Shown here in pieces: positions 7,057 to 28,154 of a stretch of 64,000 nucleotides of DNA. Every line of letters starts with the position of its first letter. Within the stretch, counting starts at the first letter, position 1. The DNA comes from Candidatus Margulisiibacteriota bacterium (GTDB lineage: Bacteria > Margulisbacteria > Marinamargulisbacteria > JBFWNS01), in NCBI GenBank assembly GCA_050250935.1, contig JBFWNS010000002.1, positions 199,793 through 263,792 of the forward strand, in the 5' to 3' direction. Under the pieces are notes generated by a model. It worked only from the letters and a program-made list of their open reading frames with translations, searched no databases and was not told the origin of the DNA. The position numbers and the translations under genes were made by a program.

Positions 7057-8157
7057 ATGTCGTGGGCGGAAGACCTTTCCCGGATTGATTCGGAGGGTTG
7101 CCGCCGTCGGCTGGGGTCGTTGAAGGGCGCTGTTGGGGCAGACTTTACCACCAACGATAGTTTGGGGCTGAGTACGCATCCGGCATTGCTCGAATCGGTG
7201 AAGGCCTCGTTTTCGAAAATGGGGGCAACAGGGTCTCGGTTGTTGGGTGGCGATAGCCCGACCCTTCGGGAACTCGAAGCAGCCCTGGCCCAGTGGTTGA
7301 GCATCGAATCGGCCCTGGTTTTTAATTCGGGCTATCATGCCAACACCGGCATTTTGCCGGCTTTGTATGGGCCAGGGGATGTCGTGTTTGCCGACCGCTT
7401 GTGTCATGCCAGTTTGTGGGATGGCATTGCCCTTTCCAAGGCCAGTTTACACCGGTTTGCCCACAACGATCTTACCCATTTGGAAACCTTGCTTAAAAAA
7501 CACCGTCCAAACGCCAAACGCGCCGTGATTGTGGCCGAAGCCTTGTTCAGCATGGACGGGGATTTTGCGCCTTTATCGGATTTGGTTCGGCTTAAACACC
7601 AGTTTGGGGCCGAACTCTATGTGGACGAAGCCCACAGCATTGGCGCCTATGGCCCCACCGGAAACGGCCTTGTAGGCCTTTTGGGATTGGAAAAAGACAT
7701 CGATTTTTGGGTGGGGACATTTGGAAAAGCCTTTGGTAGTTACGGGGCTTTTGTGGGCTGTGCGGACATCCTCAAACACCTGCTGATTAACAAAGCCCGG
7801 CCCTTTATTTTTTCGACAGCCCTACCCCAACCCGTCGTGGCTTGGAACCTGGCTGCAATCCACTTAATGCCCCATCTGCACAGCGAACGCCAGACCTTGC
7901 ACCGGCATAGTGCTCAGTTTCGGGATCATCTGCCGGGCACCCCAAGCACCTCGCACATTGTGCCGGTGATTACCGGGTCTGCAGCCAGCGCCCTGGCTTT
8001 GGCCGACCGTTTGCACACCGAGGGTTTTGCTGTAACGGCCATTCGTCACCCCACGGTTCCCAAGGGAACAGAACGGATTCGGCTATCGTTAACGGCGACC
8101 CACAGCCCAGACACCCTTCACCACCTGTTACACATCCTCTCGGAGACCCTAGCATGA
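7057..8157 (+). CDS. bioF: 8-amino-7-oxononanoate synthase (class II aminotransferase)
   Basis: Starts at ATG 7057, one nt after the pepA TAG. GYHANTGIL and SMDGD motifs and the PLP-lysine region TFGKAFG are typical BioF/KBL. Confidence 0.8.
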   Translation: MSWAEDLSRIDSEGCRRRLGSLKGAVGADFTTNDSLGLSTHPALLESVKASFSKMGATGSRLLGGDSPTLRELEAALAQWLSIESALVFNSGYHANTGILPALYGPGDVVFADRLCHASLWDGIALSKASLHRFAHNDLTHLETLLKKHRPNAKRAVIVAEALFSMDGDFAPLSDLVRLKHQFGAELYVDEAHSIGAYGPTGNGLVGLLGLEKDIDFWVGTFGKAFGSYGAFVGCADILKHLLINKARPFIFSTALPQPVVAWNLAAIHLMPHLHSERQTLHRHSAQFRDHLPGTPSTSHIVPVITGSAASALALADRLHTEGFAVTAIRHPTVPKGTERIRLSLTATHSPDTLHHLLHILSETLA

Positions 8158-8753
8158 CCACCCTGTATCTGCCCGGTTGGGCCACCTTGCCTACTTTGTT
8201 CCCTAACTATCACGACGCAAACACCGTTCACCTTCCCGGCCCGATGATGTCGTATTATCCCGAATTTTTCGACGCCATTGCCGAACCCCTGCATGTGGTG
8301 GGATTTTCGCTGGGCTGCTATTTGGCCCAGGATTTTTTTAGGGCTCACCCCAGCAAAGTTTTGTCGATGACCTTTCATGGGGCCCGCCCCCAGTATCCCG
8401 ATAGCGATGTTCAAGGTGTTCGCAAAGCGGTTTCCCAAACCCCATCCCGAACCCGAGCCTATCTGACCCAATTTTACAAAGCCTGTTTCACCAATCCCAT
8501 CGAGCACGCCCTGTTCAAAACAACCCTGGAAGCTTCGTTTTTAGACACCTTTACCCAACCCTTGCTAGAAGAAGGCCTGGACTATATTGCCACCTCTAAA
8601 TTGGACGGGGGTTTGCTTCAACAGGTTCCAAATTTAAGCATTTGTCACGGTCAAGAAGACGCCATTGCCCCGTTTTTTGAAACGGAAAACTTCTGCACGG
8701 AATTTTCCCTTCCCTTCTTCCCTCACCCTGGGGGGCATTCGATTCCAACTTAA
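8154..8753 (+). CDS. Alpha/beta-hydrolase esterase, putative pimeloyl-ACP methyl ester esterase (BioG/BioH-like)
   Basis: ATGA overlap with bioF; about 200 aa; nucleophile elbow GFSLG. Position and size are as for the DUF452/BioG class. Confidence 0.5.
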   Translation: MTTLYLPGWATLPTLFPNYHDANTVHLPGPMMSYYPEFFDAIAEPLHVVGFSLGCYLAQDFFRAHPSKVLSMTFHGARPQYPDSDVQGVRKAVSQTPSRTRAYLTQFYKACFTNPIEHALFKTTLEASFLDTFTQPLLEEGLDYIATSKLDGGLLQQVPNLSICHGQEDAIAPFFETENFCTEFSLPFFPHPGGHSIPT

Positions 8754-8815
8754 CCCAAGCCGCTGAAATTTTTGATGTGTTTTTTCGATAATTTTTTAAA
8801 ACACAAGGACTCAGG

Positions 8816-9838
8816 ATGTTATTTCAAAAATTTGTTTCACTGGCACACACTGAAGAAGACAGCGAAATAGGCTCCCCTGCCAAACGGGTACACCTAGACA
8901 CCCGGAAGCCCTCAGCGGAAATACAAACGGTTTGGATTCATACTGCTTTAGCCAACCATTTTGGCCTGGTTGAAAGGGCCCAAGACTGCCTTCGGAATCA
9001 GGACACTATTCGTGCCCGTATCGAGCAGTTTTACATTGATCCCGCCCGTTATGCCAATGAAACAATGCAAAAATTTTTGTCCTGTTGCCAATTTATCGTC
9101 GATTCTGGGCGGTTGCCGGTCTCCTCGAATCAACCTACAAAAACCCACTCCCCCGAAGATCAGGCTGCGAGTTGGCTCGGCCATTGTCTCTCAAATGCTC
9201 GCACTAACGCTAGCAACACAGCCACTGATGCGGTCAGTCGGTATTTGGTGGCGCAGCTCTTTGGAACCCATCAACCCTTTTTTATTCAAAACAGACTCCA
9301 AGACCTTCAATTTCTTTCAACCTTAAAATACGTGGACGATTGTATCCGACAACACAACCGGCTTCCCAACACAACAGAAGATTCTCCCGTCTACAAGGCC
9401 TATCAAAACATTTTTAACCACTACCCCAGAGGATTCCCACAAGACCTGCAACGCTTTGTTGACCATCTTTTTCCACCAGAACGCCTATTGCCCTATGTGC
9501 GCCCCACTGGCGATATGGCGCTTAATAAACTCTTTTCTGCCTTGATTGAGCATTTTCGATCCCATGGAAATGCGAACCCCTATTCTCACACCAAAAGTGA
9601 TAGCGAGCTTGTCCGTTGGTGGGAAGAGAAGTTCAGATCTGAGGGGAAAACAAGAAAACATTCTATTACCTCTCAGGCAGAAGCAAAAGTTAACCGTATT
9701 CTAGAGCTTAGAAAAGCCATTGCGACCCTTAAAGAAGGGGATTGGAATGACCAAGCCCTACACCTTGCCCAGCATATTGGGCTAATTGCCCCTCCAGCAC
9801 CTGCTCCAGCCGCCGCAGCACCAGCTGCCCAGGCTTAG
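8816..9838 (+). CDS. Hypothetical protein with Ala/Pro-rich C-terminal tail
   Basis: 340-aa ORF with AAGGAC RBS, ending APPAPAPAAAAPAAQA; no domain recognised. Confidence 0.5.
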   Translation: MLFQKFVSLAHTEEDSEIGSPAKRVHLDTRKPSAEIQTVWIHTALANHFGLVERAQDCLRNQDTIRARIEQFYIDPARYANETMQKFLSCCQFIVDSGRLPVSSNQPTKTHSPEDQAASWLGHCLSNARTNASNTATDAVSRYLVAQLFGTHQPFFIQNRLQDLQFLSTLKYVDDCIRQHNRLPNTTEDSPVYKAYQNIFNHYPRGFPQDLQRFVDHLFPPERLLPYVRPTGDMALNKLFSALIEHFRSHGNANPYSHTKSDSELVRWWEEKFRSEGKTRKHSITSQAEAKVNRILELRKAIATLKEGDWNDQALHLAQHIGLIAPPAPAPAAAAPAAQA

Positions 9839-9952
9839 CATCACACCCCTTATTAACATGAAAAAACCCTAGTGGGCTGTCCCACAAAACTTCAAGCTAT
9901 TAAAGAAGAGAAGATTGCAAAACAAGCACCCCATCGCTTAAACTAGGCTATT

Positions 9953-10243
9953 ATGCTTGGTTTTTTGAAACGATTTAAACCCTTTTTGGGCTTTGTTTTG
10001 GTTGGGCTTTGGGCTGTTTCCCTGCTTTTTGGGGCCTTACACACCCATGCCAAACCCCACAACGAAGCCACCTGTACCCTGTGTATTGTTCAGCACTTGT
10101 CCAAGGGCATTGCGCTGGCGGTTTCGATTGGGTTGGTCGTACTGTGTATCCGTGTTTTTTCTGCGTTTGATGCCTCAACTGCTGTTGCCTCTGTCTTCCA
10201 CTTTACCCTCTTTCACCGACGGGGACCCCCTGTTTCTTTGTAA
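9953..10243 (+). CDS. Small membrane protein with His/Cys-rich motif (DUF2946-like), partner of the TonB-dependent receptor
   Basis: Two hydrophobic segments flank HTHAKPHNEATCTLCIVQH. It lies 37 bp upstream of the TonB-dependent receptor, as DUF2946 genes usually do. Confidence 0.4.
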   Translation: MLGFLKRFKPFLGFVLVGLWAVSLLFGALHTHAKPHNEATCTLCIVQHLSKGIALAVSIGLVVLCIRVFSAFDASTAVASVFHFTLFHRRGPPVSL

Positions 10244-10279
10244 TTAATCGCCCCATTTTATTACAAAGGAATTGTTATC

Positions 10280-12319
10280 ATGACACGTTTTCGTTTAACC
10301 GTGTTGATACTCGGCTTTTTGGCCGGGGGTCAGCCGCTTTTGTTTGCCGATATCCCCCTACCCGAAATTACGGTTCGCAGCTCTGCTTTAACCCAAGAAC
10401 TTACACCCAGCGCTTCGCATACCCACCAACGCATTACCGATACCCAAATCCAAACCCTGCCTGGGGGTAGCATCCAACCCTTGTCCAAGGTGATGATTGG
10501 CACCCAACCCGGTGTTGTGGCCGGCAGCTTGGGCCAAGTTTTTATTCGGGGCAACCACGGTGGGGTTTTGTATACCCTAGACGGTGTCCCCTTGCCCGAT
10601 TCCATGGCAACGGCCATGGGCTCGATGGTGTCCTTGGATGCCATTGAGGACATGGATATTATCACCGGCGGACTGCCTGCCGAATATGGCAACCGTTTAT
10701 CGGCGGCAGTGAATCTAACCTCTAAAACCGGAAGGCTTGCCCCAGAAGGCAGCTTTTCTTTGGGATATGGGTCTTACAACACCTTTTTTCCCAGCTTTAG
10801 TTATGGCGGAACCAATTCGACGGGTTCGCTTCGGTATTTTATGGCAGCCAATTTCAAAACCACAGACCGAGGTTTGGACACCCCTACCCCAAAAAATGCC
10901 TCGGACCCTTATGCGGGTGGCAGCTCGGATAGCTTGCACAATACCAGCCGAAGCACCAACTCCTTTGCCAAAGTGGACTGGGACGCCGATGCCAGCACCC
11001 AGTGGAGCTTGACCGCTTTGCATGGCCAAAACTATTTTGAACTGCCCATTGATCCGGCCATCTCCCAATCTCAAAACACCCAAAAAGAACAGAACACCAC
11101 CCTCCAACTCAACTGGAAAAAACAACTTTCAGACACAACGGTGGTGACGTTGGCCCCCTATTGGAAATACGCCGACGTGGTCTATACCGGAGACCCCACC
11201 CACGATTTAGCCATCAGCCAAGACGATGTGATTCCAACCTCGTTTTTCCAAAGCCGTCACACCAACACCTTCGGTCTTAAAGGGGATGCCACTTTAACAG
11301 CGAACCCCCTACACAAACTCAAAGTGGGGTTTTTAACCACCTATTCACAGTCCGAGGGGGATATCACCATCATCACCACCGACACCACCGTTCGGGATGG
11401 AAATCCCAGCAAGGCCACGGCCCAAAGTGTGTATATTCAAGACGACATAACCCTGGCGCCAAATTTTGTGGTGAATGCCGGGCTGCGCTTGGATGCCACC
11501 CAAGTCGCCTTTGCCGATACCACCGCTGTCGATAGCGCACTTAGCCCTCGTTTGGGCGCCAGCTATATGCTGACACCCGACACCAAAGTCCACGCCTTTT
11601 ATGGCAAATTGTTCCAGCCTGCACCGGCAGAGAATTTACGGTCTAGCTTTAGCAGTGTAGGCGGCGGAACGTTGTCGCCCTACGACATCAAAGCCGAAAA
11701 AAGCGATTTTTATGAGGTGGGCATAGAGCAAAAATGGGGCAGTCAATGGGTTAATCTGACTTCTTTTTATAAATCCGCCATCAACATTATCGATGAAACC
11801 CAGTTGCTCAATACCCCGATGACCCAACCGTTTAACCTGGCCACCGGCTATGCCTATGGGGTGGAACTTGGCCTTCACGGTAAGCTCACTCACCAGCTCA
11901 GCCATTACCTAAATTATGCCTACACCATCGCCAAAGGCCGTGGAATCAGCGGGGGTATTTTTGCTTTTTCACCCGACGATTTGCCCAGCGATCAGGAACA
12001 ATATTTGGACCATCTTCAAATTCACACCTTCAACGCTGGCCTTACGTATCGCCACGATCAGTTTTGGTCCACCTTGCAGGCCACCTATGGCAGCGGTCTT
12101 CGAACAGGCCCAGACAACAACGACGCCCTGCCAGCCCACCTGACCTTCGACACCACCATCGGGCAAGGTTTTGACACAGACTTTGGAACGTTTAAAGTGG
12201 CCTTGGATGTTCTGAATATCCTGGATAACGCCCACCCCATTACCCTGTCGAACGGGTTTAACGGCACCCATTACGCCGCCGGAAGAACCTGGATGCTTCG
12301 GGTAACCAAAACCTTCTAG
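10280..12319 (+). CDS. TonB-dependent outer-membrane receptor
   Basis: Signal peptide, TonB-box-like EITVRSS and plug motif IRGNHGGVLYTLDGVPL. Beta-barrel body ends in the terminal aromatic ...LRVTKTF. Confidence 0.85.
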   Translation: MTRFRLTVLILGFLAGGQPLLFADIPLPEITVRSSALTQELTPSASHTHQRITDTQIQTLPGGSIQPLSKVMIGTQPGVVAGSLGQVFIRGNHGGVLYTLDGVPLPDSMATAMGSMVSLDAIEDMDIITGGLPAEYGNRLSAAVNLTSKTGRLAPEGSFSLGYGSYNTFFPSFSYGGTNSTGSLRYFMAANFKTTDRGLDTPTPKNASDPYAGGSSDSLHNTSRSTNSFAKVDWDADASTQWSLTALHGQNYFELPIDPAISQSQNTQKEQNTTLQLNWKKQLSDTTVVTLAPYWKYADVVYTGDPTHDLAISQDDVIPTSFFQSRHTNTFGLKGDATLTANPLHKLKVGFLTTYSQSEGDITIITTDTTVRDGNPSKATAQSVYIQDDITLAPNFVVNAGLRLDATQVAFADTTAVDSALSPRLGASYMLTPDTKVHAFYGKLFQPAPAENLRSSFSSVGGGTLSPYDIKAEKSDFYEVGIEQKWGSQWVNLTSFYKSAINIIDETQLLNTPMTQPFNLATGYAYGVELGLHGKLTHQLSHYLNYAYTIAKGRGISGGIFAFSPDDLPSDQEQYLDHLQIHTFNAGLTYRHDQFWSTLQATYGSGLRTGPDNNDALPAHLTFDTTIGQGFDTDFGTFKVALDVLNILDNAHPITLSNGFNGTHYAAGRTWMLRVTKTF

Positions 12320-12335
12320 TTCCGCCTGGATCGCT

Positions 12336-12362
12336 TCCCTCCCCAGATGTTTTGGGGAGGGA
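12336..12362. terminator. Perfect 9-bp stem hairpin between convergent TonB-receptor and P450 genes
   Basis: tccctcccc-agatgtttt-ggggaggga. A T-run (tctttttt) follows about 20 nt later on the plus strand. Confidence 0.35.
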
Positions 12363-12388
12363 GGTCTCCGCGCAAGCTAAGGTCTTTT

Positions 12389-14038
12389 TTAAGAGACGGG
12401 GCCAACCATCACGCTTTGCATACACGCATACAAGGTTCCGATAAAGTTCCGTGGACATGTGTCTGGATGCGGTGAACCGGGCACAGTCGTCACCGTGGAT
12501 CGTCTGAACAAAGCCTCAATCACACGATAAAGCGTTTTGGGCGCATGTCCCACGGCAGGACATGTGACATTTCCACCACCAAATGCCGTGGTTTTTGGCA
12601 AAGATTCATCTGCCCAACGTTCGGGTTTAAACGCTGTTGGATCGACAAACACGTCTGGGTCTTGCCCCATCCACAACGAATTTAATACCACAAAACTCCC
12701 TTTAGGGATGACTTTTCCAGAAGCCAAAGTGATAGACTCTTGCGGAATAATCGGGACCAACGGGGATGGCGGGTCCAGCCGCAGCACTTCTTGGATAACC
12801 TGTCTTAATAAGGGAGAATCTCCAGATTCCAACTCACGTCTAATTTGTGCTGTCCACTCAGAACTGCTCTGGTGAGCCAACCGGTATAGGGTCCACGACA
12901 AAGCGGTGGCCAGTGCATCTGAACCCACATGTAAAATGGCCGTGACTTGGCGGACATAAGCCTCACTTTTTAAAAGGGCATGAAGCTGATCGGGGTTATC
13001 TCTTAATGCGTGTAACTTTGCTTCGTATTTGGCTGTACCCAAAGCACCGTACTTGCCTTGGGCTTGTTCATCCATCATTTTACAAACCATCTGCAGGGCA
13101 AAAGGAAGCTTTGCATAACAAACTGGCTTTTCTGAATCTGAAAGAACAAGGTCAGACGTTAACTGAGCTTGCATCGTGTCAAACAAGAGGGTATCCAGAA
13201 GTTCTCCGGCCATTTCAAATTCACTATCAATCGCACTTGGACGCATCCACAAATCGGTTATTTTTTGATAAACACCCAAAAAGGCATCGGCCAGCACCAA
13301 TGCCAACCTCGGATCCGGATTTGGAATCCCAAAAGCCTGCCTTAACATCACCCCCATGCTAAACGTATGGGCCAATGCAGAAAGATCCATCGATTGCTTA
13401 GGATCCACATACAACAGGGCCGCTTCCATGCTGTTGACCACATCCGCTTCAGAAGGCACTTTGGTTGCCTGTTTGTAGAACAGGGTCATCATCTGATGAT
13501 CTTTTGGAAGCGCAGAAAACGGGGATTCTCCAAAAAACCGATTTCGAACAAAGGCCATGGGTTGCCGCAAATGGGCAACTGTTGAATACCCCGTCTCTGG
13601 GTTCAGTTTGACACGGTCTAGAAACTCTTTTTGTTCCGCATTGGTGGACAAGTACACCGAATGACCGTCGCCTAGTTTTGTAGGTAAAGACGTTGGCGTC
13701 CTTCCAGCTTGTTTGGCCGCTTGATCAGCCTGATATTGTTCTGCTCCACGTTGCTTCAAAAAGGCTCCAAGTTCTGTTCCATAGGTTCGCCCAGCTGCAT
13801 TGGTTGGGTCTTTTGCAAGACGATTAGACAGAAAACCGGGGGTTGGCGCATCTTTGGGATGGTGCACACGAATGTCTTGTAAGGATGTAGCCGGGTCTAT
13901 GTCGGACTTACCAGTTTTTCTATTCACCCCATAGTGAATGGTGGGGTCCCCAAACAAATAATCCCCCACCCTTCTCACAAAATCCCGCTTAGCCGGGGAC
14001 GGTAAATGATAGGTTCGAACACTGATAAATTTGTACAT
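12389..14038 (-). CDS. Cytochrome P450-like protein, extended (549 aa) with non-canonical heme loop
   Basis: ExxR motif (EVLRLDPP), PERW motif (FKPERW) and Cys-ligand loop FGGGNVTCPAVG (FxxGxxxCxA). Roughly 150 extra N-terminal residues. Confidence 0.7.
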   Translation of the reverse strand: MYKFISVRTYHLPSPAKRDFVRRVGDYLFGDPTIHYGVNRKTGKSDIDPATSLQDIRVHHPKDAPTPGFLSNRLAKDPTNAAGRTYGTELGAFLKQRGAEQYQADQAAKQAGRTPTSLPTKLGDGHSVYLSTNAEQKEFLDRVKLNPETGYSTVAHLRQPMAFVRNRFFGESPFSALPKDHQMMTLFYKQATKVPSEADVVNSMEAALLYVDPKQSMDLSALAHTFSMGVMLRQAFGIPNPDPRLALVLADAFLGVYQKITDLWMRPSAIDSEFEMAGELLDTLLFDTMQAQLTSDLVLSDSEKPVCYAKLPFALQMVCKMMDEQAQGKYGALGTAKYEAKLHALRDNPDQLHALLKSEAYVRQVTAILHVGSDALATALSWTLYRLAHQSSSEWTAQIRRELESGDSPLLRQVIQEVLRLDPPSPLVPIIPQESITLASGKVIPKGSFVVLNSLWMGQDPDVFVDPTAFKPERWADESLPKTTAFGGGNVTCPAVGHAPKTLYRVIEALFRRSTVTTVPGSPHPDTCPRNFIGTLYACMQSVMVGPVS

Positions 14039-14505: not shown

Positions 14506-15741
14506 ATGAACCACACCTCCTTTTTTAAGCTTCTCTCCTCTCGTTTTTTGTATTCCATGGCGGTTCAAATTCAGGCTCTGGTCTTGGGCTGGCAGATGTA
14601 TACCTTGACCCACAGCCCGGTCTATTTGGGGTTGATTGGATTGGCCGAGGCGGTTCCAGCCCTTAGCTTGGCCTTGTTTTCGGGATACCTGATCGACCGC
14701 TCTAATCCCATGAAAATGTTAACCTTTTCCATTGTGGTGGGTCTGGTTTCAGCTTCGTTTTTGTGGGCACCCCATTTGCCCGGTATCCATCTGGGGTTGA
14801 AACTGCAAATCATCTGCCTGTTTTTGTCTTCTTTTTTGACTGGCATTTCCAGATCGTTTTTACACCCCAGCGTCTTTGCCATCGTGCCCCGCATTGTCGA
14901 GCGCAGCTATTTGCCAAAATCCTCGGCGTGGATGACGATGGCCTATCAAACCGCCAGTGTGTCTGGCCCAGCCATTGGGGGGCTATTGTTTGGATTTTTT
15001 GGCATTTTTACAGCTGCCTCGGTGGTGGTGGGACTAACCACCTTGTCTTTGCTGGGATTAAGTTTGACCCATTTTGCTTGGACCCCTGCCCCGCAACAAC
15101 CGGTTCGGGGGCGGTTTAAAGTCGAGTTGATGTCTGGGCTTCGATTTGTGTTTAAACACCCGCTCTTATTGCCTGCCCTATCCTTGGACATGATTTCGGT
15201 GTTGTTTGGGGGCATTACGGCTTTGCTTCCTATTTATGCAGCCGAAATCTTGTTTGTGGGGCCCATTGGACTGGGCTGGCTTCGGGCAGCAACAGCCATT
15301 GGTGCCGGCGGCGTCAGTCTTGCGCTCACCCAAATTGAAATCAAAAAGAAAGCCGGTCGCTTGCTATTGGGCTCTGTAACAGGGTTTGGGGTTTGCATTT
15401 TGGTGTTTGCCATCAGCAAAAACTATGTCTTGTCTTTCGGAGCCTTGCTGCTGAGTGGCATGTTCGATTCCGTCAGTGCGGTGATCCGCTCGGCCTTGGT
15501 TCAATTGTCCTCGCCCGACGAGCTTCGGGGCCGCATTTCTGCAGTGAACATGGTTTTTATCAGCTCTTCGAACGAGCTTGGGGAATTTGAATCGGGCATG
15601 GCGGCTAAGTTGTTGGGCACTGTTCCTGCTGCCGTCTTTGGCGGCATTGTTTGCTTGCTAACGGTGGGTACCGTAACCCTGTTTTCAAAACCCCTGCGGG
15701 AATTGGATTTGTCTAGGCTTAGGCCGGAAGAGACGTTGTAA
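14506..15741 (+). CDS. MFS transporter
   Basis: 12-TM profile with MFS-like loop motifs. Confidence 0.85.
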   Translation: MNHTSFFKLLSSRFLYSMAVQIQALVLGWQMYTLTHSPVYLGLIGLAEAVPALSLALFSGYLIDRSNPMKMLTFSIVVGLVSASFLWAPHLPGIHLGLKLQIICLFLSSFLTGISRSFLHPSVFAIVPRIVERSYLPKSSAWMTMAYQTASVSGPAIGGLLFGFFGIFTAASVVVGLTTLSLLGLSLTHFAWTPAPQQPVRGRFKVELMSGLRFVFKHPLLLPALSLDMISVLFGGITALLPIYAAEILFVGPIGLGWLRAATAIGAGGVSLALTQIEIKKKAGRLLLGSVTGFGVCILVFAISKNYVLSFGALLLSGMFDSVSAVIRSALVQLSSPDELRGRISAVNMVFISSSNELGEFESGMAAKLLGTVPAAVFGGIVCLLTVGTVTLFSKPLRELDLSRLRPEETL

Positions 15742-16864
15742 AAAAAGTCTCTGCAGCGTTTCGATCGATGATCATCGGCACTGCATTTGGGTAGATCTTT
15801 AAAAACTTCTCTAACCCGCGATGCCGGCTGGCTTTATGGTCAGATTTAACTTCGATCGCGTACAATTTTTCATTGGTTTGAAACACAAAATCCACCTCAT
15901 CATTACCGTCTCGATAATAGGAAAGTTGGCCTTTTTGAAGCGATAAATGGGCACCAACAGCCGCCTCTAGAAGTCGCCCTTTCCAAATTGAGTCTTCTTT
16001 TTTGGAGCCATGAAGGGCCTGAGGCAAGGCGTTGTTTAAGGGAAGTAACTTTGGTGCGGACGATCGTCGTCGGAGTTCAGACCCGCCATATTTTTGAAGA
16101 GCTTTAACTAAAAATGCCCCTTCAAACAAGGTCAAATAATGCTGAATGGTGGTGATGTTACCCTTATCTTGTAATTGCCCCAACAACTTGGTCAGGGAAA
16201 TTTCCTGGGCCGGATAGGCCATTGCAAGTTCAAAACACTGTCGAAAAAGGGCTGGCTTGTGCACCGTTGCTACTTGCAAGATATCTTTGGACAAAACCGG
16301 TTCGATAATGCCGTATTTAACATAGTCTTCCCAACGCTCTTGATTCGAAACCAATTCTGCGGCGCCCGGATAGCCGCCATAGGTTAAATAGGTCTCCAAG
16401 TTCCAACCAAAAGCTTCTTTACAATGGGTATAGCTCCAATGTGGGGCAAAAATCAATTCAAATCGGCCCGCCAAGCTTTCCGAAAGTCCTTGCTGAATAC
16501 TTAAGCTCGCCGAACCCAAGAGCACCACTTTCATGGAACGAGAGGCCCGTTCTTGATCAAACATGACTTTAATCACCCGACTCCAATCCCGTACCTTTTG
16601 AATTTCATCAAAAACCAGCAACACATTGTTACCCATGCTTTTGGCCAATTTCCATTGAACTTCGATCCAGCTTTCGGTGGGTGCAGCCACTTCGTCTGCC
16701 GTCACCATCAAAGTAGGCCCTTTCCACCGAGAAACGATACTTTTTAGCGCTGTGGTTTTACCCACCTGCCTAGGCCCCAAGACAACCTGAATAAAATTCA
16801 AATCAGATTGAAGGCGTTGTTCTAAAAAATGTTCAAATTCCGGCTTCATTAAGTTCATATTCAA
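15719..16864 (-). CDS. AAA+ ATPase (COG1373 / DUF4143 family)
   Basis: Walker A GPRQVGKTT near the N-terminus, Walker B LLVFDEIQ, and a C-terminal DUF4143-like region. Confidence 0.8.
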   Translation of the reverse strand: MNMNLMKPEFEHFLEQRLQSDLNFIQVVLGPRQVGKTTALKSIVSRWKGPTLMVTADEVAAPTESWIEVQWKLAKSMGNNVLLVFDEIQKVRDWSRVIKVMFDQERASRSMKVVLLGSASLSIQQGLSESLAGRFELIFAPHWSYTHCKEAFGWNLETYLTYGGYPGAAELVSNQERWEDYVKYGIIEPVLSKDILQVATVHKPALFRQCFELAMAYPAQEISLTKLLGQLQDKGNITTIQHYLTLFEGAFLVKALQKYGGSELRRRSSAPKLLPLNNALPQALHGSKKEDSIWKGRLLEAAVGAHLSLQKGQLSYYRDGNDEVDFVFQTNEKLYAIEVKSDHKASRHRGLEKFLKIYPNAVPMIIDRNAAETFFTTSLPA

Positions 16865-16878
16865 CAGAATATCAAACT

Positions 16879-16920
16879 TTACTAGATATAACTAGTAATT
16901 TTACTAGATATAACTAGTAA
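16879..16920. promoter_or_regulatory. Tandem pair of identical 20-bp palindromes (TTACTAG-ATATAA-CTAGTAA) spaced 22 bp apart in a divergent promoter
   Basis: ttactagatataactagtaa occurs at 16879-16898 and again at 16901-16920. The arms are 7-bp inverted repeats. It lies between the minus-strand ATPase start (16864) and the plus-strand gene start (16972). Confidence 0.45.
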
Positions 16921-16971: not shown

Positions 16972-18099
16972 ATGTCAGACAAATTTTCTTTAAAAGACCA
17001 TCTGTTTAATGCCACAACCGTTGAAAAACTGGCTGCCGAACTATTGGTTGCCTATCCTGCTTTTAACTCAAAAAGCTTTACCCAAACCGTTTTGGCCAAG
17101 TTCCCTGAACTGGAGCTTAAAGCTCGGATTGCTTGGATTTCCGAAACCCTCAAACAACACCTTCCCCCCAACTATCCCGATGCCTTGGCCATTGTACTGG
17201 CCGCTTTGCCAGCGCCCTGTGACCCCAGCAAAACCGACAACGATTTTGGAAGCTTCACCTATGCCGCCTATGGCGATTTTGTGGCTAAAAATGGCTGCAC
17301 AAAACCCCATTTAACCCAAAGTTTAGAAGCCCTAAAAGCCATTACCACCCGATTTTCGGCAGAAGATGCCATTCGCCCTTTTTTGAATGCCTTTCCCAAC
17401 GAAACTTTGGCTGTTCTTAAACATTGGACCCAAGACAAGCACTATCACGTTCGTCGGCTGGTCAGCGAAGGCACCCGCCCCAAACTGCCTTGGGCACCTA
17501 AAATTTTTTTGGATCCTCGCCAAGCACTTCCGCTTTTGGACGCTCTTTTTGCAGATTCCACCCGCTATGTCACCCGCTCGGTGGCCAACCATTTAAACGA
17601 CATTGCCAAGCTGGACCCTGGCTTGGTGCTGAAAACCCTGGATCGCTGGCAAACCAGCAAACGCCAAACCCCAGCCGAAATGGCCTATCTATGCCGCCAT
17701 GCGTTGCGGGGCCTCATCAAAGCGGGGCACGCCGATACCCTGCGCTTTTTAAACTATTCGCCTGAAGCTCAGGTGAGTTTATCCCACTTCTCTCTTGAAA
17801 AATCAGTTGTCAAAATCGGGGAAGCCCTGGTTTTTTCGCTTGAATTAAGGGCTCAAAAAGCCGAACGGGTGGTGGTGGACTATGTACTTCATTTTCAAAA
17901 CAAAGCCGGCGAAATGGCCAGCAAAAAAGTGTATAAACTGACTGAATGCACCCTCCAAAAAGGCGAACCCCAGTGCTTTTCCAAACGCCACCCCCTTCGC
18001 GCCAACATGACCACCCGCCCCCTATTTCCCGGCGCTCATCGCGTGGATATTCAGATTAACGGGCAGTGTTTGGGGTCTTTGGATTTTGAATTAATTTAG
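16972..18099 (+). CDS. DNA alkylation repair protein (AlkC/AlkD-like HEAT-like repeats with C-terminal extra domain)
   Basis: About 370 aa, helical-repeat composition, with HYHVRRLVSEGTRPKLPW-type basic repeat loops. A C-terminal beta-rich ~100 aa is as in long AlkC. Confidence 0.45.
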   Translation: MSDKFSLKDHLFNATTVEKLAAELLVAYPAFNSKSFTQTVLAKFPELELKARIAWISETLKQHLPPNYPDALAIVLAALPAPCDPSKTDNDFGSFTYAAYGDFVAKNGCTKPHLTQSLEALKAITTRFSAEDAIRPFLNAFPNETLAVLKHWTQDKHYHVRRLVSEGTRPKLPWAPKIFLDPRQALPLLDALFADSTRYVTRSVANHLNDIAKLDPGLVLKTLDRWQTSKRQTPAEMAYLCRHALRGLIKAGHADTLRFLNYSPEAQVSLSHFSLEKSVVKIGEALVFSLELRAQKAERVVVDYVLHFQNKAGEMASKKVYKLTECTLQKGEPQCFSKRHPLRANMTTRPLFPGAHRVDIQINGQCLGSLDFELI

Positions 18100-21400: not shown

Positions 21401-21441
21401 AATTCTAAACCCATTCCCCCAAAAGTAAAAGATTTTTTTAT
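21401..21441. repeat. 41-bp conserved element, copy A (upstream of the terpene-synthase-like gene)
   Basis: aattctaaacccattcccccaaaagtaaaagatttttttat is identical to 22837-22877. Partial similarity extends about 20 bp further. Confidence 0.6.
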
Positions 21442-22757
21442 GTCAACTTCTGGTTGATTTGAAAAGTGACTTGAAAAGTTGTTCCAAGTCCCTGCTCTGT
21501 AGTAATGTGGAGTTTTCCTCCCTGCGCCGCCACAACCTCCTTAACAAACGTCAGTCCAAACCCCGAATTCCCAACCTTGGTACTAAACCCTTCCTCAAAA
21601 ATTTGATCCATAATCTCTGGGGCAATCCCTCCGGCATTATCCCGAAGTCCAAACAAAACCCCACCTTCCGTTCTTTTTGCCGAAAATTCTAGCTTGGTAG
21701 CCCCCGCTTGAATGGCGTTGACCATAAGATTGATGATGACGTTTTGAATTGCCCCTTCATGGCCATAAATAAGGGGAAGGTTCGATTCAAAATCCAACGT
21801 GGCTTGAACATTTTTTAGACAAAGATCTCCCTTTGACATGGTTAGCAAGGCTCGAACCATGGATTCCAATTCAAAAGTACTCGTTGCAGAAATGCTGAGG
21901 GAATTTTGGTGCAGAAGGGTTTCGACCAAATTATAGAGATTGGCGATAGTCCCTCTTAAGATGTTGGCTATTTTTTCGATATCATCTGGGCTTTTGGCGT
22001 ATTGAGACATAAGGTCGGGGACATTGGTCATCAAGCTGAGTGGATTTTTGATTTCGTGGGCAATGTGCTGGGTCATGGTGGCGAATTGGGCTTTTTGGGT
22101 TAAGGACTTATTGGTTTCCCAAAGTGTGGCGTGGGCAGATTGAAGTTGGGTGAGGGTCGTTTCAACTTGCTGTAAAGCTATTTGGAGGTTTTCTTCGTGA
22201 TATTCATTGAGTGCAATATAATAACGGAGGGTTAAGAATACCATGCTAAAAGCAACTGCTAGGCTTAAAAAAGACAGTGAAAAAGAAGCTGTTGTTGAGA
22301 TCTGGACCGATGAAATTTTATGGGAATACAAAGGCCACAATTGTAATAAAACCATGGTTGAGAAAGGAATAGTAAAAGCTACAATTTGAAGTATTTTTTC
22401 TCTGGGGCTAAACAAAGCCAAAGAAACGGCTGCAATAACAACAGCAACAATTTGAATACCTGCCTTTGGACCTAAAATAAATGCAAAGGTAAGAATAGCC
22501 AGGCAAGTTGAAAAAACAATTGCGAGCTTTCCTAGCTTGATAAAGCCTTTGGAAATAAAAGTATAGGAACTTAGAAATAAAAGGACAAAAGGAATCACCA
22601 AAAGCGCTAATCTAGGGAACCCTAAAAACAAAAATAAGAGACTATAAGGAACCCCAGCGGCGGAACCCACTAAAATTAATGTATTGGCCAAATACAGGCG
22701 CCTTTTTTCGGGTTGCTGAATAAAACTAGAGCCCGTTTCTAGTATTTTTGTAAGCAA
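21438..22757 (-). CDS. Membrane sensor histidine kinase (paralog of 18118-19419)
   Basis: Same architecture as the downstream kinase: multi-TM N-terminus, H-box IAHEIKNPLSLM and HATPase_c motifs. Confidence 0.85.
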   Translation of the reverse strand: MLTKILETGSSFIQQPEKRRLYLANTLILVGSAAGVPYSLLFLFLGFPRLALLVIPFVLLFLSSYTFISKGFIKLGKLAIVFSTCLAILTFAFILGPKAGIQIVAVVIAAVSLALFSPREKILQIVAFTIPFSTMVLLQLWPLYSHKISSVQISTTASFSLSFLSLAVAFSMVFLTLRYYIALNEYHEENLQIALQQVETTLTQLQSAHATLWETNKSLTQKAQFATMTQHIAHEIKNPLSLMTNVPDLMSQYAKSPDDIEKIANILRGTIANLYNLVETLLHQNSLSISATSTFELESMVRALLTMSKGDLCLKNVQATLDFESNLPLIYGHEGAIQNVIINLMVNAIQAGATKLEFSAKRTEGGVLFGLRDNAGGIAPEIMDQIFEEGFSTKVGNSGFGLTFVKEVVAAQGGKLHITTEQGLGTTFQVTFQINQKLT

Positions 22758-22836
22758 TGATTTGGCCTTTTATTGTGGCATAGAGCTTTACAAATGGAAC
22801 TCTATTTACAAAAAATAAGGGGAAACTTATGTACAG

Positions 22837-22877
22837 CAATTCTAAACCCATTCCCCCAAAAGTAAAAGATTTTTTTA
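22837..22877. repeat. 41-bp conserved element, copy B (upstream of sensor kinase 21438-22757)
   Basis: Identical to 21401-21441. Lies 79-120 bp upstream of the minus-strand kinase start. Confidence 0.6.
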
Positions 22878-23018
22878 TACTCCTTTAGGGTTGACTTGAA
22901 AAGAAAATGGCTTCATGAACTATGCCAAGACACCATAACGACTTTTTAAAGAAATCCGTGAAAGACAGCCACTTTTTTTGACTTTTTCACGATTTTTATC
23001 TGAATTTCGTTATTCTGT

Positions 23019-24151: not shown

Positions 24152-26179
24152 TTACACCACAATTTTTTCGAAATCTCCAATAGACTTAAACAACCCATTA
24201 ATTTGAGACAAAAACGCCAAGCGGTTGGCTCGAATTCCCTCGTCTGGGTCCATGACCATAACCTGATCAAAATAGGTGGTTAGGGTTGGGATGAGGGTTT
24301 GAACCATCGGCTTGTAGTGGTCGATGACGGTCTGCGGGGTAACCCCAGCTGGAAACAGGGCTTTGAAAGCATCCAAAGCCACCCCTTCTTGAGCGTCTTT
24401 AAACAAACGGGGCTCCACTGCCGATACCGCTTCCGATTTTACCAATCGGGCGACCCGAACCCCCAGATCCACCCAGGCTTTAAAATGGGGCTCTTGGCGG
24501 CGGGCTTTTAAGAAGGTCAAAGCAGCCAGTTGTTGGCTGGGTTTTCCAGCAAAATTAGCCATAACAGCATCGACCAAATCGTAGTCGAATCCGCGCAGCT
24601 CTTTAAAAAACAAACTGACCCGCTGTTTGAAAAAATCCAAACAGTCTTTTTTTCCTGTTTGGGTTTGGAGGCCCTCAAAGGCAGCATCCAGACCCTCGGT
24701 TAAAGAAAAGGAAGTCCAGTCGGGCAAGGTTAAATTCATTTCCAAAATCGCATTGGCCATCCGACGAATGCTCCAGGGATCTTGAGAGCCGGTTGGAATC
24801 AGTCCGTTTACAAAACAGGCTGCAATTGTGTCCAACCGATCGGCGATGCCAACCACAGACCCCGCAAGGGTTGTAGGCAAGCTATCCCCAGCAAATCGGG
24901 GCAGATAGTGCTCTTCGATGCCCAAGGAAACGGGCTCGGGCAGCCGGTGATACCGGGCATAAACCGCCCCCATTTTGCCTTGAAGCTCTGGCAATTCGTA
25001 GACCATTTGGGTGGTTAAATCAGACTTGGACAACCGGGCAATGATTTCGATATTGGGGTCTGTTTTTCCAATAAACGAAGCCAACTGGATCGACAGGCGC
25101 TGAATTCGCGCCACTTTGTCGGCCAAGGTTCCCAACCCTTTTTGGAAGACCACGGTTTTTAATTTTTCGGCGTGTTGGTCCAGGGTTTGTTTGATGTCTT
25201 CTTCGTAAAAAAACCGTACATCGTCCAAACGGGCCACCAAAACTTGGCGGTTGCCTTTTCGAATATTGGCCTCGCTTTTGGGGGTGACATTTTCGGCCAC
25301 CACGGCAAAGGAATGGGTTAATTGACCGTTGTTGAGAATGGGAAAGTATTTTTGATGCTTTTTCATACAGGCAATTAAAGCCTGTTGGGGCAGGCGTAAA
25401 AAGTCGTCGGGAAACGATTCGACCAGCACCGTTGGCCATTCGCACAAATAGGTGACTTCTTCGAGCAAGCCTTCGTCGGATTGGGCGCCATGGGTTTCCA
25501 GTGCTTTGCGAATCGCCTGCTTGCGTTTGGCGGGGTCTACTACCACATGGGCATTTTCCAGAATCGTTTCGAATTGGGTGGCTTCTGGGACTGGAATGGG
25601 CTGATGATCGGCTAAAAACCGGTGCCCCCAAGTCTCGGGTTTGCTTTGAATGCCATACAAATTCAGAGGAATAGCGGTGTTGCCATGCAAACAAAGCACC
25701 CAATGCACGGGCCGAATAAAGGCCTTGCTTTCGTGCCCCCATTTCATGGCAATGGGCAAGGGCAAATTGGCCACAACCGATTCCAACAGTTCGGGCAAGA
25801 CTTGAACAGCAGGCGCAACCGATTCGTCGCGATAGGCCACCACATAGGATTTCCCTTGCTCTTCTTCAACAACGAAAGCATCGGGATCGATTCCGGCTTT
25901 TTTGGCAAAGCCAATGGCCGGGGCAAGCCATTCGCCGTTGGTGCCTTTGGCTGCGGCCAATTGTGGGCCACGCAATCGGGTTTTTCCGCCGGTTTGCTCG
26001 GTGGCCAAGTTGGCCATCAGAACAAAACGTCTGTAGGTTCCCAAGGTTCGGACCTCGGTTGCAGCCAATCGGTGGCTGGCAAAGGCCGTCTCGGCTGCCG
26101 TTTTTAGTTGGTTTAAAAAGTCTGTCATAAAGCGGGCGGGAACCTCTTCCACACCCAGCTCGAATACAAATGGCCTCAT
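24152..26179 (-). CDS. glyS: Glycine--tRNA ligase beta subunit
   Basis: [19 protein letters not shown]-terminus and overall GlyS-beta length. The start was chosen at M13 of the track ORF, giving an ATGA overlap with the upstream ATPase stop. Confidence 0.9.
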   Translation of the reverse strand: MRPFVFELGVEEVPARFMTDFLNQLKTAAETAFASHRLAATEVRTLGTYRRFVLMANLATEQTGGKTRLRGPQLAAAKGTNGEWLAPAIGFAKKAGIDPDAFVVEEEQGKSYVVAYRDESVAPAVQVLPELLESVVANLPLPIAMKWGHESKAFIRPVHWVLCLHGNTAIPLNLYGIQSKPETWGHRFLADHQPIPVPEATQFETILENAHVVVDPAKRKQAIRKALETHGAQSDEGLLEEVTYLCEWPTVLVESFPDDFLRLPQQALIACMKKHQKYFPILNNGQLTHSFAVVAENVTPKSEANIRKGNRQVLVARLDDVRFFYEEDIKQTLDQHAEKLKTVVFQKGLGTLADKVARIQRLSIQLASFIGKTDPNIEIIARLSKSDLTTQMVYELPELQGKMGAVYARYHRLPEPVSLGIEEHYLPRFAGDSLPTTLAGSVVGIADRLDTIAACFVNGLIPTGSQDPWSIRRMANAILEMNLTLPDWTSFSLTEGLDAAFEGLQTQTGKKDCLDFFKQRVSLFFKELRGFDYDLVDAVMANFAGKPSQQLAALTFLKARRQEPHFKAWVDLGVRVARLVKSEAVSAVEPRLFKDAQEGVALDAFKALFPAGVTPQTVIDHYKPMVQTLIPTLTTYFDQVMVMDPDEGIRANRLAFLSQINGLFKSIGDFEKIVV

Positions 26180-27297
26180 GGTTTGGATCCTTCTTGCGCT
26201 TTGGCTTTCAAACACACCACCCCACCCTCTGTGCGTTTGAACAACACGAGATTTTCGAGTTCAAATTCCCCAATCAAAACGGGATTTTGGACATCCAAGA
26301 TCACCTGGGTCTGCTCGCTGGCAGCCAAAAACAGCCGATGCAACTGAGGCAAAAGACTGGCGTGAAGGCCAGCATCGGGAAACTTAATGCCCATGACGGT
26401 CGGTTTTTGGGGATGCAAACACAACACCACCCAGCACAAAAATCGGACCCAAGCATCGGACCATTCGTAGATGGGCAACTTCACCGAAACCTCTTGGACA
26501 GAGGCCAAAACCATGCACTCTCGACTTAGGCCTTTTTGATTGACGGTTAAGGACAGAATCGCAGGAAAAGCGGTTTTGAGTTCCGCTTCGATGGCCTGAA
26601 ACACGGTTGGGTTTTTGTGTTGTAATTCGTAAAGCAGGCTCGGCAAATTCGAGGCATCTTCGGCCAAAAAAGTGTCTTTTCCGGCGTCTCCCACATCCAT
26701 AAACCGTTTGGCAAAGAGGGTTTCTGCCTTGTACAAGCGCCATCCCGAAATAAAGTGCTTAACACTGGCAATCACACCCAAGCTGGGGTCTTTGATCTGG
26801 GCCAGCCCCAGGCTGTTGGGCTCTCGGGTTCGAAACGTGTGTTTAATTCCCCAATGACTGACCGTGCCTTGGGTATTTTTTCGCTCGGGATCGTCGGCAA
26901 TGCCCTCTTGGTTTTTCACTTGCATGAAGTCGAAACTGTGGTTTGGCGCCGTGCCTTTGATGCGTTCGGACACCACGGCCAACCGTTGCAAAGGACCTTT
27001 AAGCTCGCCTTGGTAAAACAAGTACGATTCGAGTTTGGCATCGGCCTCGATTTTAAGGCTCCATAACAGGGACGATTGGGCATTGAAAAACACCTTGGTC
27101 CCCACATGGGTTGCCCATAATTCGGGGGTCATTTGGCCTTCGTTTAGGCTGTCTCTGAGGGCGGACAAAAATCCAAACACCGACGACTTGCCCACCCCAT
27201 TTTCGCCCAAAAAAACCGAAAGTCGGTTCAAAGGAACGGTGATGTCGTCGAACAGGCGATAGCCCTGCAACCGAATGGATTTGATTATGGATTTCAC
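26176..27297 (-). CDS. SMC/ABC-like P-loop ATPase (AAA_21/RecF-like fold) inserted between glyQ and glyS
   Basis: [14 protein letters not shown]...GENGVGKSS Walker A at the N-terminus and a C-terminal [15 protein letters not shown]-loop-like region. ATGA overlaps at both ends. Confidence 0.65.
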
Positions 27298-28154
27298 TCG
27301 GGCTCCTTGATGTACAACTCGGCACAGCCTCGGGCCAGTTTTCGAATGCGCAGAATGGTAGCCGTTCTTTCGGAAACTGAAATGGCGCCTCGGGCATCCA
27401 ATAAATTAAAGGTATGCGAGCATTTTAAGCACCAATCATAGGCCGGAATGGCCAATCCAGCTGCCAAGACCCGCTGGGTTTCAGCCTCGTAAAGGGCAAA
27501 CAATTGAAAAAGCATCTCGGTGGATGCCTCTGTAAAATTATAATGACAATTTTCGATTTCAGACTGCTTGTAAATGTCCCCATAGGTGACGATCTTGTCT
27601 TTGTGGGTTTGCCACACCAAATCGTAGACCGTTGGTTTTTGTTGAATAAACATGGCCAAGCGTTCTAGCCCATAGGTAATTTCAACCGAAATGGGGTTCA
27701 CATCCACCCCGCCGCATTGTTGGAAATAGGTAAATTGGGTCACTTCCATGCCATTTAGCCAGACTTCCCAGCCCACACCCCAAGCACCAAGGGTTGGCGA
27801 TTCCCAGTTGTCTTCGACAAACCGAATGTCGTGTTCTTCGGGAATAATCCCCAACCCGCGCAAACTGTTTAAATAGAGTTCTTGGACGTTCAGCGGCGAA
27901 GGCTTCAAAATCACTTGAAATTGAAAATAGTGTTGAAGGCGATTGGGGTTTTCGGCATATCGACCATCGGTGGGACGGCGGCAGGGTTCGACATAGGCCA
28001 CGTTCCAATCGCTGGGACCCAAGACCCTTAAAAAAGTGTGGGGGCTCATCGTGCCAGCCCCTTTTTCAGTGTCATAGGGGTTTAAAATCAGACACCCTTG
28101 TTCGTCCCAATATCGCTGTAAATTAAAAATGATTTCTTGAAAAGTAAGTGCCAC
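27294..28154 (-). CDS. glyQ: Glycine--tRNA ligase alpha subunit
   Basis: [21 protein letters not shown]...[15 protein letters not shown] is canonical GlyQ. Confidence 0.95.

Follow-up and report, generated by a model that had tools for sequence, protein, structure and literature searches.

Two exact copies of a 41-bp element upstream of sensor kinase and terpene synthase genes in a Margulisiibacteriota bacterium: a candidate duplicated promoter

Introduction

The sigma-70 promoters of Escherichia coli comprise a -35 hexamer (TTGACA) and a -10 hexamer (TATAAT) separated by 17 +/- 1 nt, and their proximal UP element is an A-rich tract located at about -46 to -38. Here we describe a 41-bp element that occurs twice in a 64,000-nt stretch of DNA from Candidatus Margulisiibacteriota bacterium (assembly GCA_050250935.1, contig JBFWNS010000002.1, positions 199,793 to 263,792), hereafter called the window. 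One copy precedes the gene of a membrane sensor histidine kinase, HK2, and the other precedes the gene of a terpene-synthase family protein, itself followed by the gene of a second sensor kinase, HK1. We know of no promoter of the uncultivated phylum Margulisiibacteriota that has been characterised, nor, to our knowledge, have the sigma factors of this phylum been characterised.

The element resembles an E. coli sigma-70 promoter in its layout, its spacing, its location on the coding strand and its distance of 65-81 nt to the start codons. Moreover, the block of identity between the two copies covers exactly the region contacted by the RNA polymerase holoenzyme. It differs by a modest match to the consensus, with an activity that is only predicted here, and by a spacer that is unusually G-rich (GGGGGAATGGG) and identical in both copies, a feature that is not required of ordinary promoters.

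Three other kinds of system come close. In operons with internal or tandem promoters, too, a second promoter is found where the first gene ends and no terminator intervenes, which gives nested transcripts and boosts the distal genes. Such promoters normally have their own, unrelated sequence, whereas here the internal and the leading element agree at all of 41 positions, and the presence of the last kinase codons in the unit betrays a copy-and-paste origin. Repetitive extragenic palindromic sequences and bacterial interspersed mosaic elements (REP/BIME), miniature inverted-repeat transposable elements (MITEs) and the short repeats of cyanobacteria are, like our element, short, exact and intergenic, and break assemblies made with short k-mers; the present repeat, however, has two copies 1.4 kb apart and none elsewhere in the sequence inspected, and it shows no dyad symmetry, terminal inverted repeats or target-site duplication. 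Finally, as in integron attC cassettes and direct-repeat deletions, one complete gene (HK2) lies between exact repeats of the same orientation, but no integrase or attC-type imperfect palindrome is present, and the stop codon of HK2 itself lies within the repeat.

We propose that the element is a locally duplicated promoter of the sigma-70 type which would drive both HK2 and the terpene synthase together with HK1, a reading to which we assign a probability of roughly 0.55.

Results and discussion

Two copies of a 66-nt unit

The 41-mer AATTCTAAACCCATTCCCCCAAAAGTAAAAGATTTTTTTAT is found in two exact copies on the + strand of the window, at 21401-21441 (copy A) and 22838-22878 (copy B). The copies have the same orientation, with a period of 1,437 bp, and HK2 is the gene that they bracket. 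An initial annotation, made from the sequence of the window, had already reported this exact repeat on one strand, with the second copy placed one base off (22837-22877). Allowing up to 3 mismatches brought out no third match in the window, none of 100 shuffled sequences contained any match, and the number of exact 41-mer pairs expected by chance in 64 kb is about 8e-16. Since the genes around the repeat are all on the minus strand (Table 1), we describe the element hereafter as read on that strand. Copy A ends 64 nt before the ATG of the terpene synthase gene (21336) and copy B 80 nt before the TTG of HK2 (22757), both within the 60-120 bp first given.

The homology extends beyond the 41-mer on the side away from the downstream genes. 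The full unit measures 66 nt (21401-21466 for copy A, 22838-22903 for copy B) and consists, in this order on the gene strand, of a 15-nt box, a 10-mer and the perfect 41-nt core. The box, CTTTTCAARTCAACC, is identical between the copies at 14 of 15 positions at a fixed offset (P ~4e-8), and its distance to the core is exactly 10 nt in both copies, while the 10-mer that fills this distance agrees at only 2 of its 10 positions. Indeed, 8 of the 9 mismatches between the units fall in a single 10-nt window (corrected P ~4e-6), and because of this clustering the pattern is one of block, spacer and block instead of uniform decay. At the 5' edge of the unit the homology drops sharply (4/30 identical); at the 3' edge it is borderline at most, with 13/30 identities without gaps and with 835 of 2000 shuffles scoring equally in a gapped test. 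No significant flank homology was detected outside the 66-nt unit on either side. The initial annotation had described some 20 bp of partial similarity (ggg.aaac..atg.a) on the gene-proximal side, which is not distinguishable from chance similarity, and had overlooked the homology on the opposite side, the 15-nt box.

The repeat was further compared with an independent Logan assembly (SRR27751816) built with k=31, in which three contigs reach exactly 30 nt (k-1) into the copies before they stop: one of 46,026 bp at window position 21430, one of 7,396 bp at 22849, and the contig bearing HK2, whose 1,456 bp correspond to 1,396 + 30 + 30. Breaks at both copies in an independent assembly rule out an assembly artefact; the repeat accounts for the fact that short-k assemblies of this organism fragment exactly at HK2.

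Promoter-like organisation of the core

A consensus scan of the gene strand found, in both copies, TTTACT followed by a 16-nt spacer and TAGAAT, so that the perfect core can be written ATAAAAAAATCT-TTTACT-TTTGGGGGAATGGGTT-TAGAAT-T. The perfect identity opens with an A-rich tract of 11 nt just 5' of the -35-like hexamer and closes one base past the -10-like hexamer; read as a promoter, the core spans about -46 to -6 and the box lies at about -71 to -57. The hexamers score 9/12 against the consensus (4/6 for TTTACT and 5/6 for TAGAAT), and the -10 has the A at position 2 and the T at position 6. The -10-like hexamer ends 65 nt before the ATG of the terpene synthase gene and 81 nt before the TTG of HK2, and purine-rich motifs resembling Shine-Dalgarno sequences (GAGG, AAAGG) precede both start codons. 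The pairing TTTAC..TANAAT occurs in the 64 kb only in the two copies and at one unrelated site near 62.4 kb. The gene of the transfer-messenger RNA (tmRNA) is preceded by TTGCGG-17-TATACT, which shows that promoters of the sigma-70 type are used by this organism.

Other promoter classes were checked by eye, and none fits both copies. They were a sigma-54 promoter (GG-N10-GC), an extended -10, a promoter of the extracytoplasmic function type (GGAAT..CATA), whose spacing in one copy departs by 2 nt from that in the other, and leaderless initiation at the ATG contained in the core, which would place the -35 in the variable 10-mer.

Under the promoter reading, each core would hold all the contacts of the RNA polymerase holoenzyme, namely an UP-like A-tract, a -35-like hexamer, a 16-nt spacer and a -10-like hexamer. 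Upstream of HK2 there is a gap of 260 nt containing a hairpin, which directly follows the stop codon of the gene of a response-regulator protein with a receiver (REC) domain. This hairpin is plausibly the terminator of the transcript running from glyQ to glyS and the REC gene, and with this stable hairpin upstream HK2 plausibly needs a promoter of its own. Copy B, located past this hairpin, would start the transcription of HK2 at about position 22832. Copy A, embedded in the last codons and the stop of HK2, would act as an internal promoter for a transcript of the terpene synthase and HK1 starting at about 21395; HK1, whose start follows the terpene synthase stop at a distance of 9 nt, probably shares that transcript. 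Because the scan revealed no terminator-like site between HK2 and the terpene synthase gene, read-through from copy B would add to initiation at copy A. An identical promoter sequence would moreover entail the same response to one sigma factor, and to any regulator binding the G-rich spacer or the box, and this shared response would couple the expression of two MASE7 kinases and the terpene synthase.

The neighbouring REC protein had been named at the outset, as a tandem-REC regulator, among the candidate binders of the element. This proposal is not supported: in Pfam and NCBIfam the 372-aa protein gives receiver-domain matches only, with one clear REC domain (residues 184-293) and a degenerate N-terminal half, and no helix-turn-helix (HTH), other output or DNA-binding domain was detected.

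If the promoter reading is correct, the locus provides a concrete candidate promoter for Margulisiibacteriota, with exact coordinates and predicted transcription starts, and a highly divergent terpene synthase would be expressed together with two sensor kinases of the MASE7 type, a gene pairing that recurs in a distant relative (see below). Local duplication of a promoter is in itself an ordinary phenomenon, and it opens no long-standing question.

Further copies, mobility and recombination

About 96 kb of this genome were inspected for copies, comprising the 64-kb window, an 8-kb Logan extension and Logan contigs. The search for further copies proposed with the initial annotation was thus carried out over this DNA and over public collections, and it returned none beyond the two. 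No further copy with up to 8 mismatches in 41 exists in 32 sequences totalling 602 kb, including the 8 kb beyond the window, and sub-motif searches of the window gave only copies A and B. The core is absent from 185,579 GTDB species genomes (scan with a 23-mer) and from the metagenomes of the Joint Genome Institute (JGI), searched with a 23-mer and a degenerate 28-mer. Furthermore, the 46-kb and 33-kb Logan contigs run unbroken, which indicates that they hold no other core 31-mer.

Short exact intergenic repeats are often members of dispersed families of the MITE or REP kind, two copies of which might have come to lie here by chance, and the DNA inspected is about 96 kb of the genome. We consider this explanation improbable, because no other copy was seen in the window, its 8-kb extension, the fetched loci, the unbroken Logan contigs, GTDB or JGI, and because the short distance between the two copies (1.4 kb), their shared orientation and their location before start codons point to a local origin. 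Moreover, terminal inverted repeats are absent from the unit ends, and no target-site duplication is seen in the flanks, which differ. The earlier suggestion of a small mobile element is therefore not borne out.

A second possibility is that the copies are substrates of direct-repeat recombination, or boundaries of a cassette, allowing deletion, circularisation or amplification of the 1,437-bp HK2 unit; such an exchange would alter the choice of sensor that governs the terpene synthase operon. The repeats, which have the same orientation and this period, exactly bracket HK2, and the 41 bp exceed the minimum of roughly 25-30 bp known for RecA-dependent exchange in E. coli. In addition, a metagenomic locus described below has the module of terpene synthase, kinase and REC genes but lacks another kinase upstream, and in a k=31 graph the linear arrangement is indistinguishable from a deletion plus a circle. 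On the other side, the contig of the metagenome-assembled genome (MAG) resolves the linear arrangement, and the HK2 frame runs correctly into copy A. No recombinase or integrase is encoded near the cluster, the sole one in the window being 37 kb away, beside the tmRNA gene, and the unit contains neither dyad symmetry nor an attC-like imperfect palindrome. HK2 is also not a product of recent amplification, given that it is only 23% identical to HK1. A role in recombination or as cassette boundaries is thus quite improbable in our view. Its stronger form, a recombination switch which would delete the HK2 unit or, by unequal exchange, amplify it, leaving one intact promoter and joining the REC gene directly to the terpene synthase and HK1, seems very improbable; were it true, cells of the population would differ in the membrane sensor feeding the terpene synthase, kinase and REC module.

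RNA-level explanations

The element could also act in RNA, as a structured leader or riboswitch, as an attenuator with a leader peptide, or as a terminator on read-through transcripts. Two features of the sequence would fit such a role. The ATG of the core (MGLEL...) opens an open reading frame (ORF) of 14 codons in copy A and of 41 codons in copy B, with codons 13-14 reading FF in each, and the G-run of the core can pair in both copies with a C-run located about 30 nt downstream, which is followed by a T-run. However, this ATG abuts the G-run and has no usable Shine-Dalgarno spacing, and the two peptides diverge right past the core. The putative stems have 6 bp, with loops of 26-27 nt and shifted registers, and the downstream partner sequence is not significantly conserved. 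Fold energies are ordinary and the folds differ between the copies (z = -1.7 and +0.1 on the minus strand, -2.6 and +0.9 on the plus strand). Neither copy matches any Rfam family at the gathering score, and all that a permissive Rfam scan returned was noise (a plant miRNA scoring 28 bits, where the cut-off is 115, and a greA leader with E = 3.9). Likewise, a scan for intrinsic terminators, defined as a GC-rich hairpin with a 3-8-nt loop followed by a U-run, gave no site at either copy. The two copies having no fold in common and no Rfam family, the structured RNA element that had been put forward is not supported, and we give very little credence to an action at the RNA level in general.

Relatives of the cluster

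Homologues of the locus are scarce. Among the 185,579 species genomes, the nearest GlyS proteins belong to Marinamargulisbacteria/Margulisiibacteriota, with about 41% identity, and the Margulisbacteria glyS loci lack the cluster. A search of 5.8 billion proteins for homologues of the terpene synthase returned only the protein itself, and that for HK2 returned itself and one full-length relative at 24% identity; no strain variants were present in the protein clusters.

This one relative is from a metagenomic contig with a comparable arrangement (L028; JGI metagenome 3300033182, 7764-13040), where a terpene synthase gene (PF19086) lies directly before a kinase homologue, with a multi-REC protein adjacent. 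The kinase (P0003) aligns with HK1 along its full length at 27% identity (E = 1e-40) and has no MASE7 hit on record, and the terpene synthase is 38% identical to the enzyme of the window over 106 aa, a similarity seen only by direct pairwise comparison. The recurrence of the same module supports the idea that the terpene synthase, kinase and REC genes work together, and the genes may form a conserved module of a terpene synthase and a two-component system. Literature searches on Margulisbacteria terpene synthases and on MASE7 gave no description of such a module.

Origin of the unit and the case for a neutral duplication

HK2 runs into copy A, where its 3' end (...TFQV-TFQINQKLT-TAA) takes up the box, the 10-mer and the first 4 bases of the core. 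The TAA at 21438-21440 lies inside the copy, confirming the overlap with the kinase stop codon that had been noted. The description of the repeat as non-coding DNA thus holds for copy B but not for this part of copy A. In HK2 the box encodes the final part of the last beta-strand in the ATPase domain, as judged from the Pfam match, which reaches residue 434, and from the alignment with HK1. Copy B is non-coding, yet in the same frame it reads ...SFQVNPKGV up to the same TAA, within the core, and its box may be the relic of a kinase 3' end. Since copy B keeps the frame and the stop of a kinase as non-coding DNA, a local duplication is probable, and the composition of the unit suggests that the duplicated piece was a junction made of a kinase 3' end plus promoter. 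The promoter reading would thus have the unit arise by duplication of this junction, in a direction that we infer.

A kinase pseudogene upstream of copy B was also considered. Its only signs are a motif resembling a G2 box, GSGGFGL, for which E was 0.06 although the search space was tiny, and the tail SFQVNPK, for which E was 0.8; the two are collinear but in different frames, which is suggestive of such a pseudogene without establishing it. The 3' end of HK2 itself contains an in-frame tandem duplication of 12 nt, CTTTTCAAGTCA then CTTTTCAAATCA (21455-21478), giving TFQV-TFQI. As copy B has a single unit, either copy A gained one by slippage or copy B lost one.

The main rival of the promoter reading is a neutral origin, in which about 66 nt straddling the 3' end of a kinase gene and the intergenic DNA after it were copied to a site 1.4 kb distant and remain there as the scar of a recent local duplication or gene-conversion tract. 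The identity would then reflect recency only, and the promoter-like hexamers would be coincidental in AT-rich intergenic DNA. Such an origin predicts what is seen in copy B, which keeps the kinase frame and stop as a copied junction would, and agrees with the sharp end of the homology at the 5' edge (4/30). One multi-nucleotide replacement could explain the scrambled 10-mer, hexamer matches are equally common in shuffled sequences, and there is no evolutionary conservation to invoke. It leaves to coincidence, however, that the identity starts with an A-tract and a -35 and ends one base past a -10, in the right orientation and 65-81 nt before both start codons. In addition, HK2 follows a hairpin and a 260-nt gap and so needs some promoter there, and the clustering of the mismatches (P ~4e-6) is not a simple decay. 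On balance we regard a neutral scar as possible, though unlikely.

Several observations nevertheless weigh against a duplicated promoter. Hexamer pairs of the quality found here number 10 in 6.5 kb against 9.4 +/- 2.8 in shuffles, so that the hexamer motif alone carries no weight. The box is coding sequence in copy A, and its conservation there has for this reason another explanation. A promoter does not need a letter-perfect 16-nt spacer, which makes a recent copy or gene conversion a more likely cause of the exact identity than selection. With the nearest GlyS at about 41% identity, there is no closer genome for comparison, and neither a counterpart of the element nor an analogous repeat is recognisable in the DNA upstream of the L028 terpene synthase. 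The 96 kb inspected, finally, compare with a window contig of 289,672 bp (proteins MGE4169806-810) in a MAG that is larger still. The initial annotation held that so exact a conservation implies a shared operator or promoter. The layout fits a promoter, but the implication does not follow, because there is no close relative and the identity is between paralogous copies in one genome, for which a recent local duplication or gene conversion accounts equally well.

Genomic neighbourhood

The features of the unit and the genes around it are listed in Table 1.

Table 1. Coordinates, in the window, of the two repeat units and of the surrounding genes
Feature	Position	Strand	Remarks
glyQ	27294-28154	-	
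AAA_15/AAA_21 ATPase	26176-27297	-	
glyS	24152-26215	-	
Response-regulator protein, 372 aa	23019-24137	-	starts 14 nt past glyS end
Hairpin (candidate terminator)	22930..23018	-	directly after REC stop; -25.3 kcal/mol, z = -2.9; then U-rich tract
Copy B, 15-nt box	22889..22903	-	CTTTTCAAGTCAACC; non-coding
Copy B, 10-mer	22879..22888	-	CTAAAGGAGT
Copy B, core	22838..22878	-	TTTACT 22866-22861; TAGAAT 22844-22839
HK2, MASE7-like membrane sensor histidine kinase, 439 aa	21438..22757	-	TTG start; first gene downstream of copy B
Copy A, extra tandem 12-mer	21467..21478	-	CTTTTCAAGTCA; absent from copy B; read from sequence
Copy A, 15-nt box	21452..21466	-	CTTTTCAAATCAACC; codes for ..TFQIN, end of last beta-strand of HK2 HATPase_c
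Copy A, 10-mer	21442..21451	-	AGAAGTTGAC; codes for last HK2 residues ..QKLT
Copy A, core	21401..21441	-	ATAAAAAAATCT (A-tract) 21441-21430; TTTACT 21429-21424; TTTGGGGGAATGGGTT 21423-21408; TAGAAT 21407-21402; then T
Terpene-synthase family protein, 635 aa	19429..21336	-	PF19086 at residues 327-561; first gene downstream of copy A
HK1, MASE7 sensor kinase, 433 aa	18118..19419	-	starts 9 nt after terpene synthase stop

HK1 and HK2 are 23% identical over their full length and have a MASE7-like membrane domain in common. The public annotation of HK2 (MGE4169808.1) gives a protein of 268 aa, which lacks the entire MASE7-like membrane domain. The 439-aa ORF starting at TTG aligns with HK1 from residue 27 and is also the call made on the Logan assembly; the shorter record is probably a start-codon error in the deposited annotation.

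The terpene synthase carries an N-terminal extension of about 330 aa with a Pro/Ser-rich linker. Genes of the major facilitator superfamily (MFS) and of cytochrome P450 are also among the neighbours of the cluster. A divergent cytochrome P450 and a TonB-dependent receptor (window 12389-14038; L001 9112-11151) lie about 5-9 kb from the terpene synthase gene and may belong to a terpenoid-modifying cluster.

The AAA_15/AAA_21 ATPase gene (AbiEii/OLD-like) separates glyQ from glyS, two genes that normally lie side by side, and overlaps both by a few bases.

Another short repeat is present at 16875-16918, as a tandem pair of 22-nt units, AACTTTACTAGATATAACTAGT, that are 95% identical and in perfect register. 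Each unit contains the palindrome ACTAG..CTAGT, and the pair sits in the divergent intergenic region between an AAA_14/DUF4143 ATPase gene (15719-16864, minus strand) and the gene of a 375-aa protein (16972-18099, plus strand). Judged on its sequence, it looks like an operator.

At the other end of the window, a large serine recombinase (60121-61695; Resolvase, Recombinase and Zn_ribbon_recom domains) abuts the 3' end of the tmRNA gene (59753-60132), and a MerR/HTH_17 protein is encoded beside it at 61692-62402. The 33-kb Logan contig ends in that region, at about 63581, and the segment 59753-63581 looks like a mobile element integrated at ssrA.

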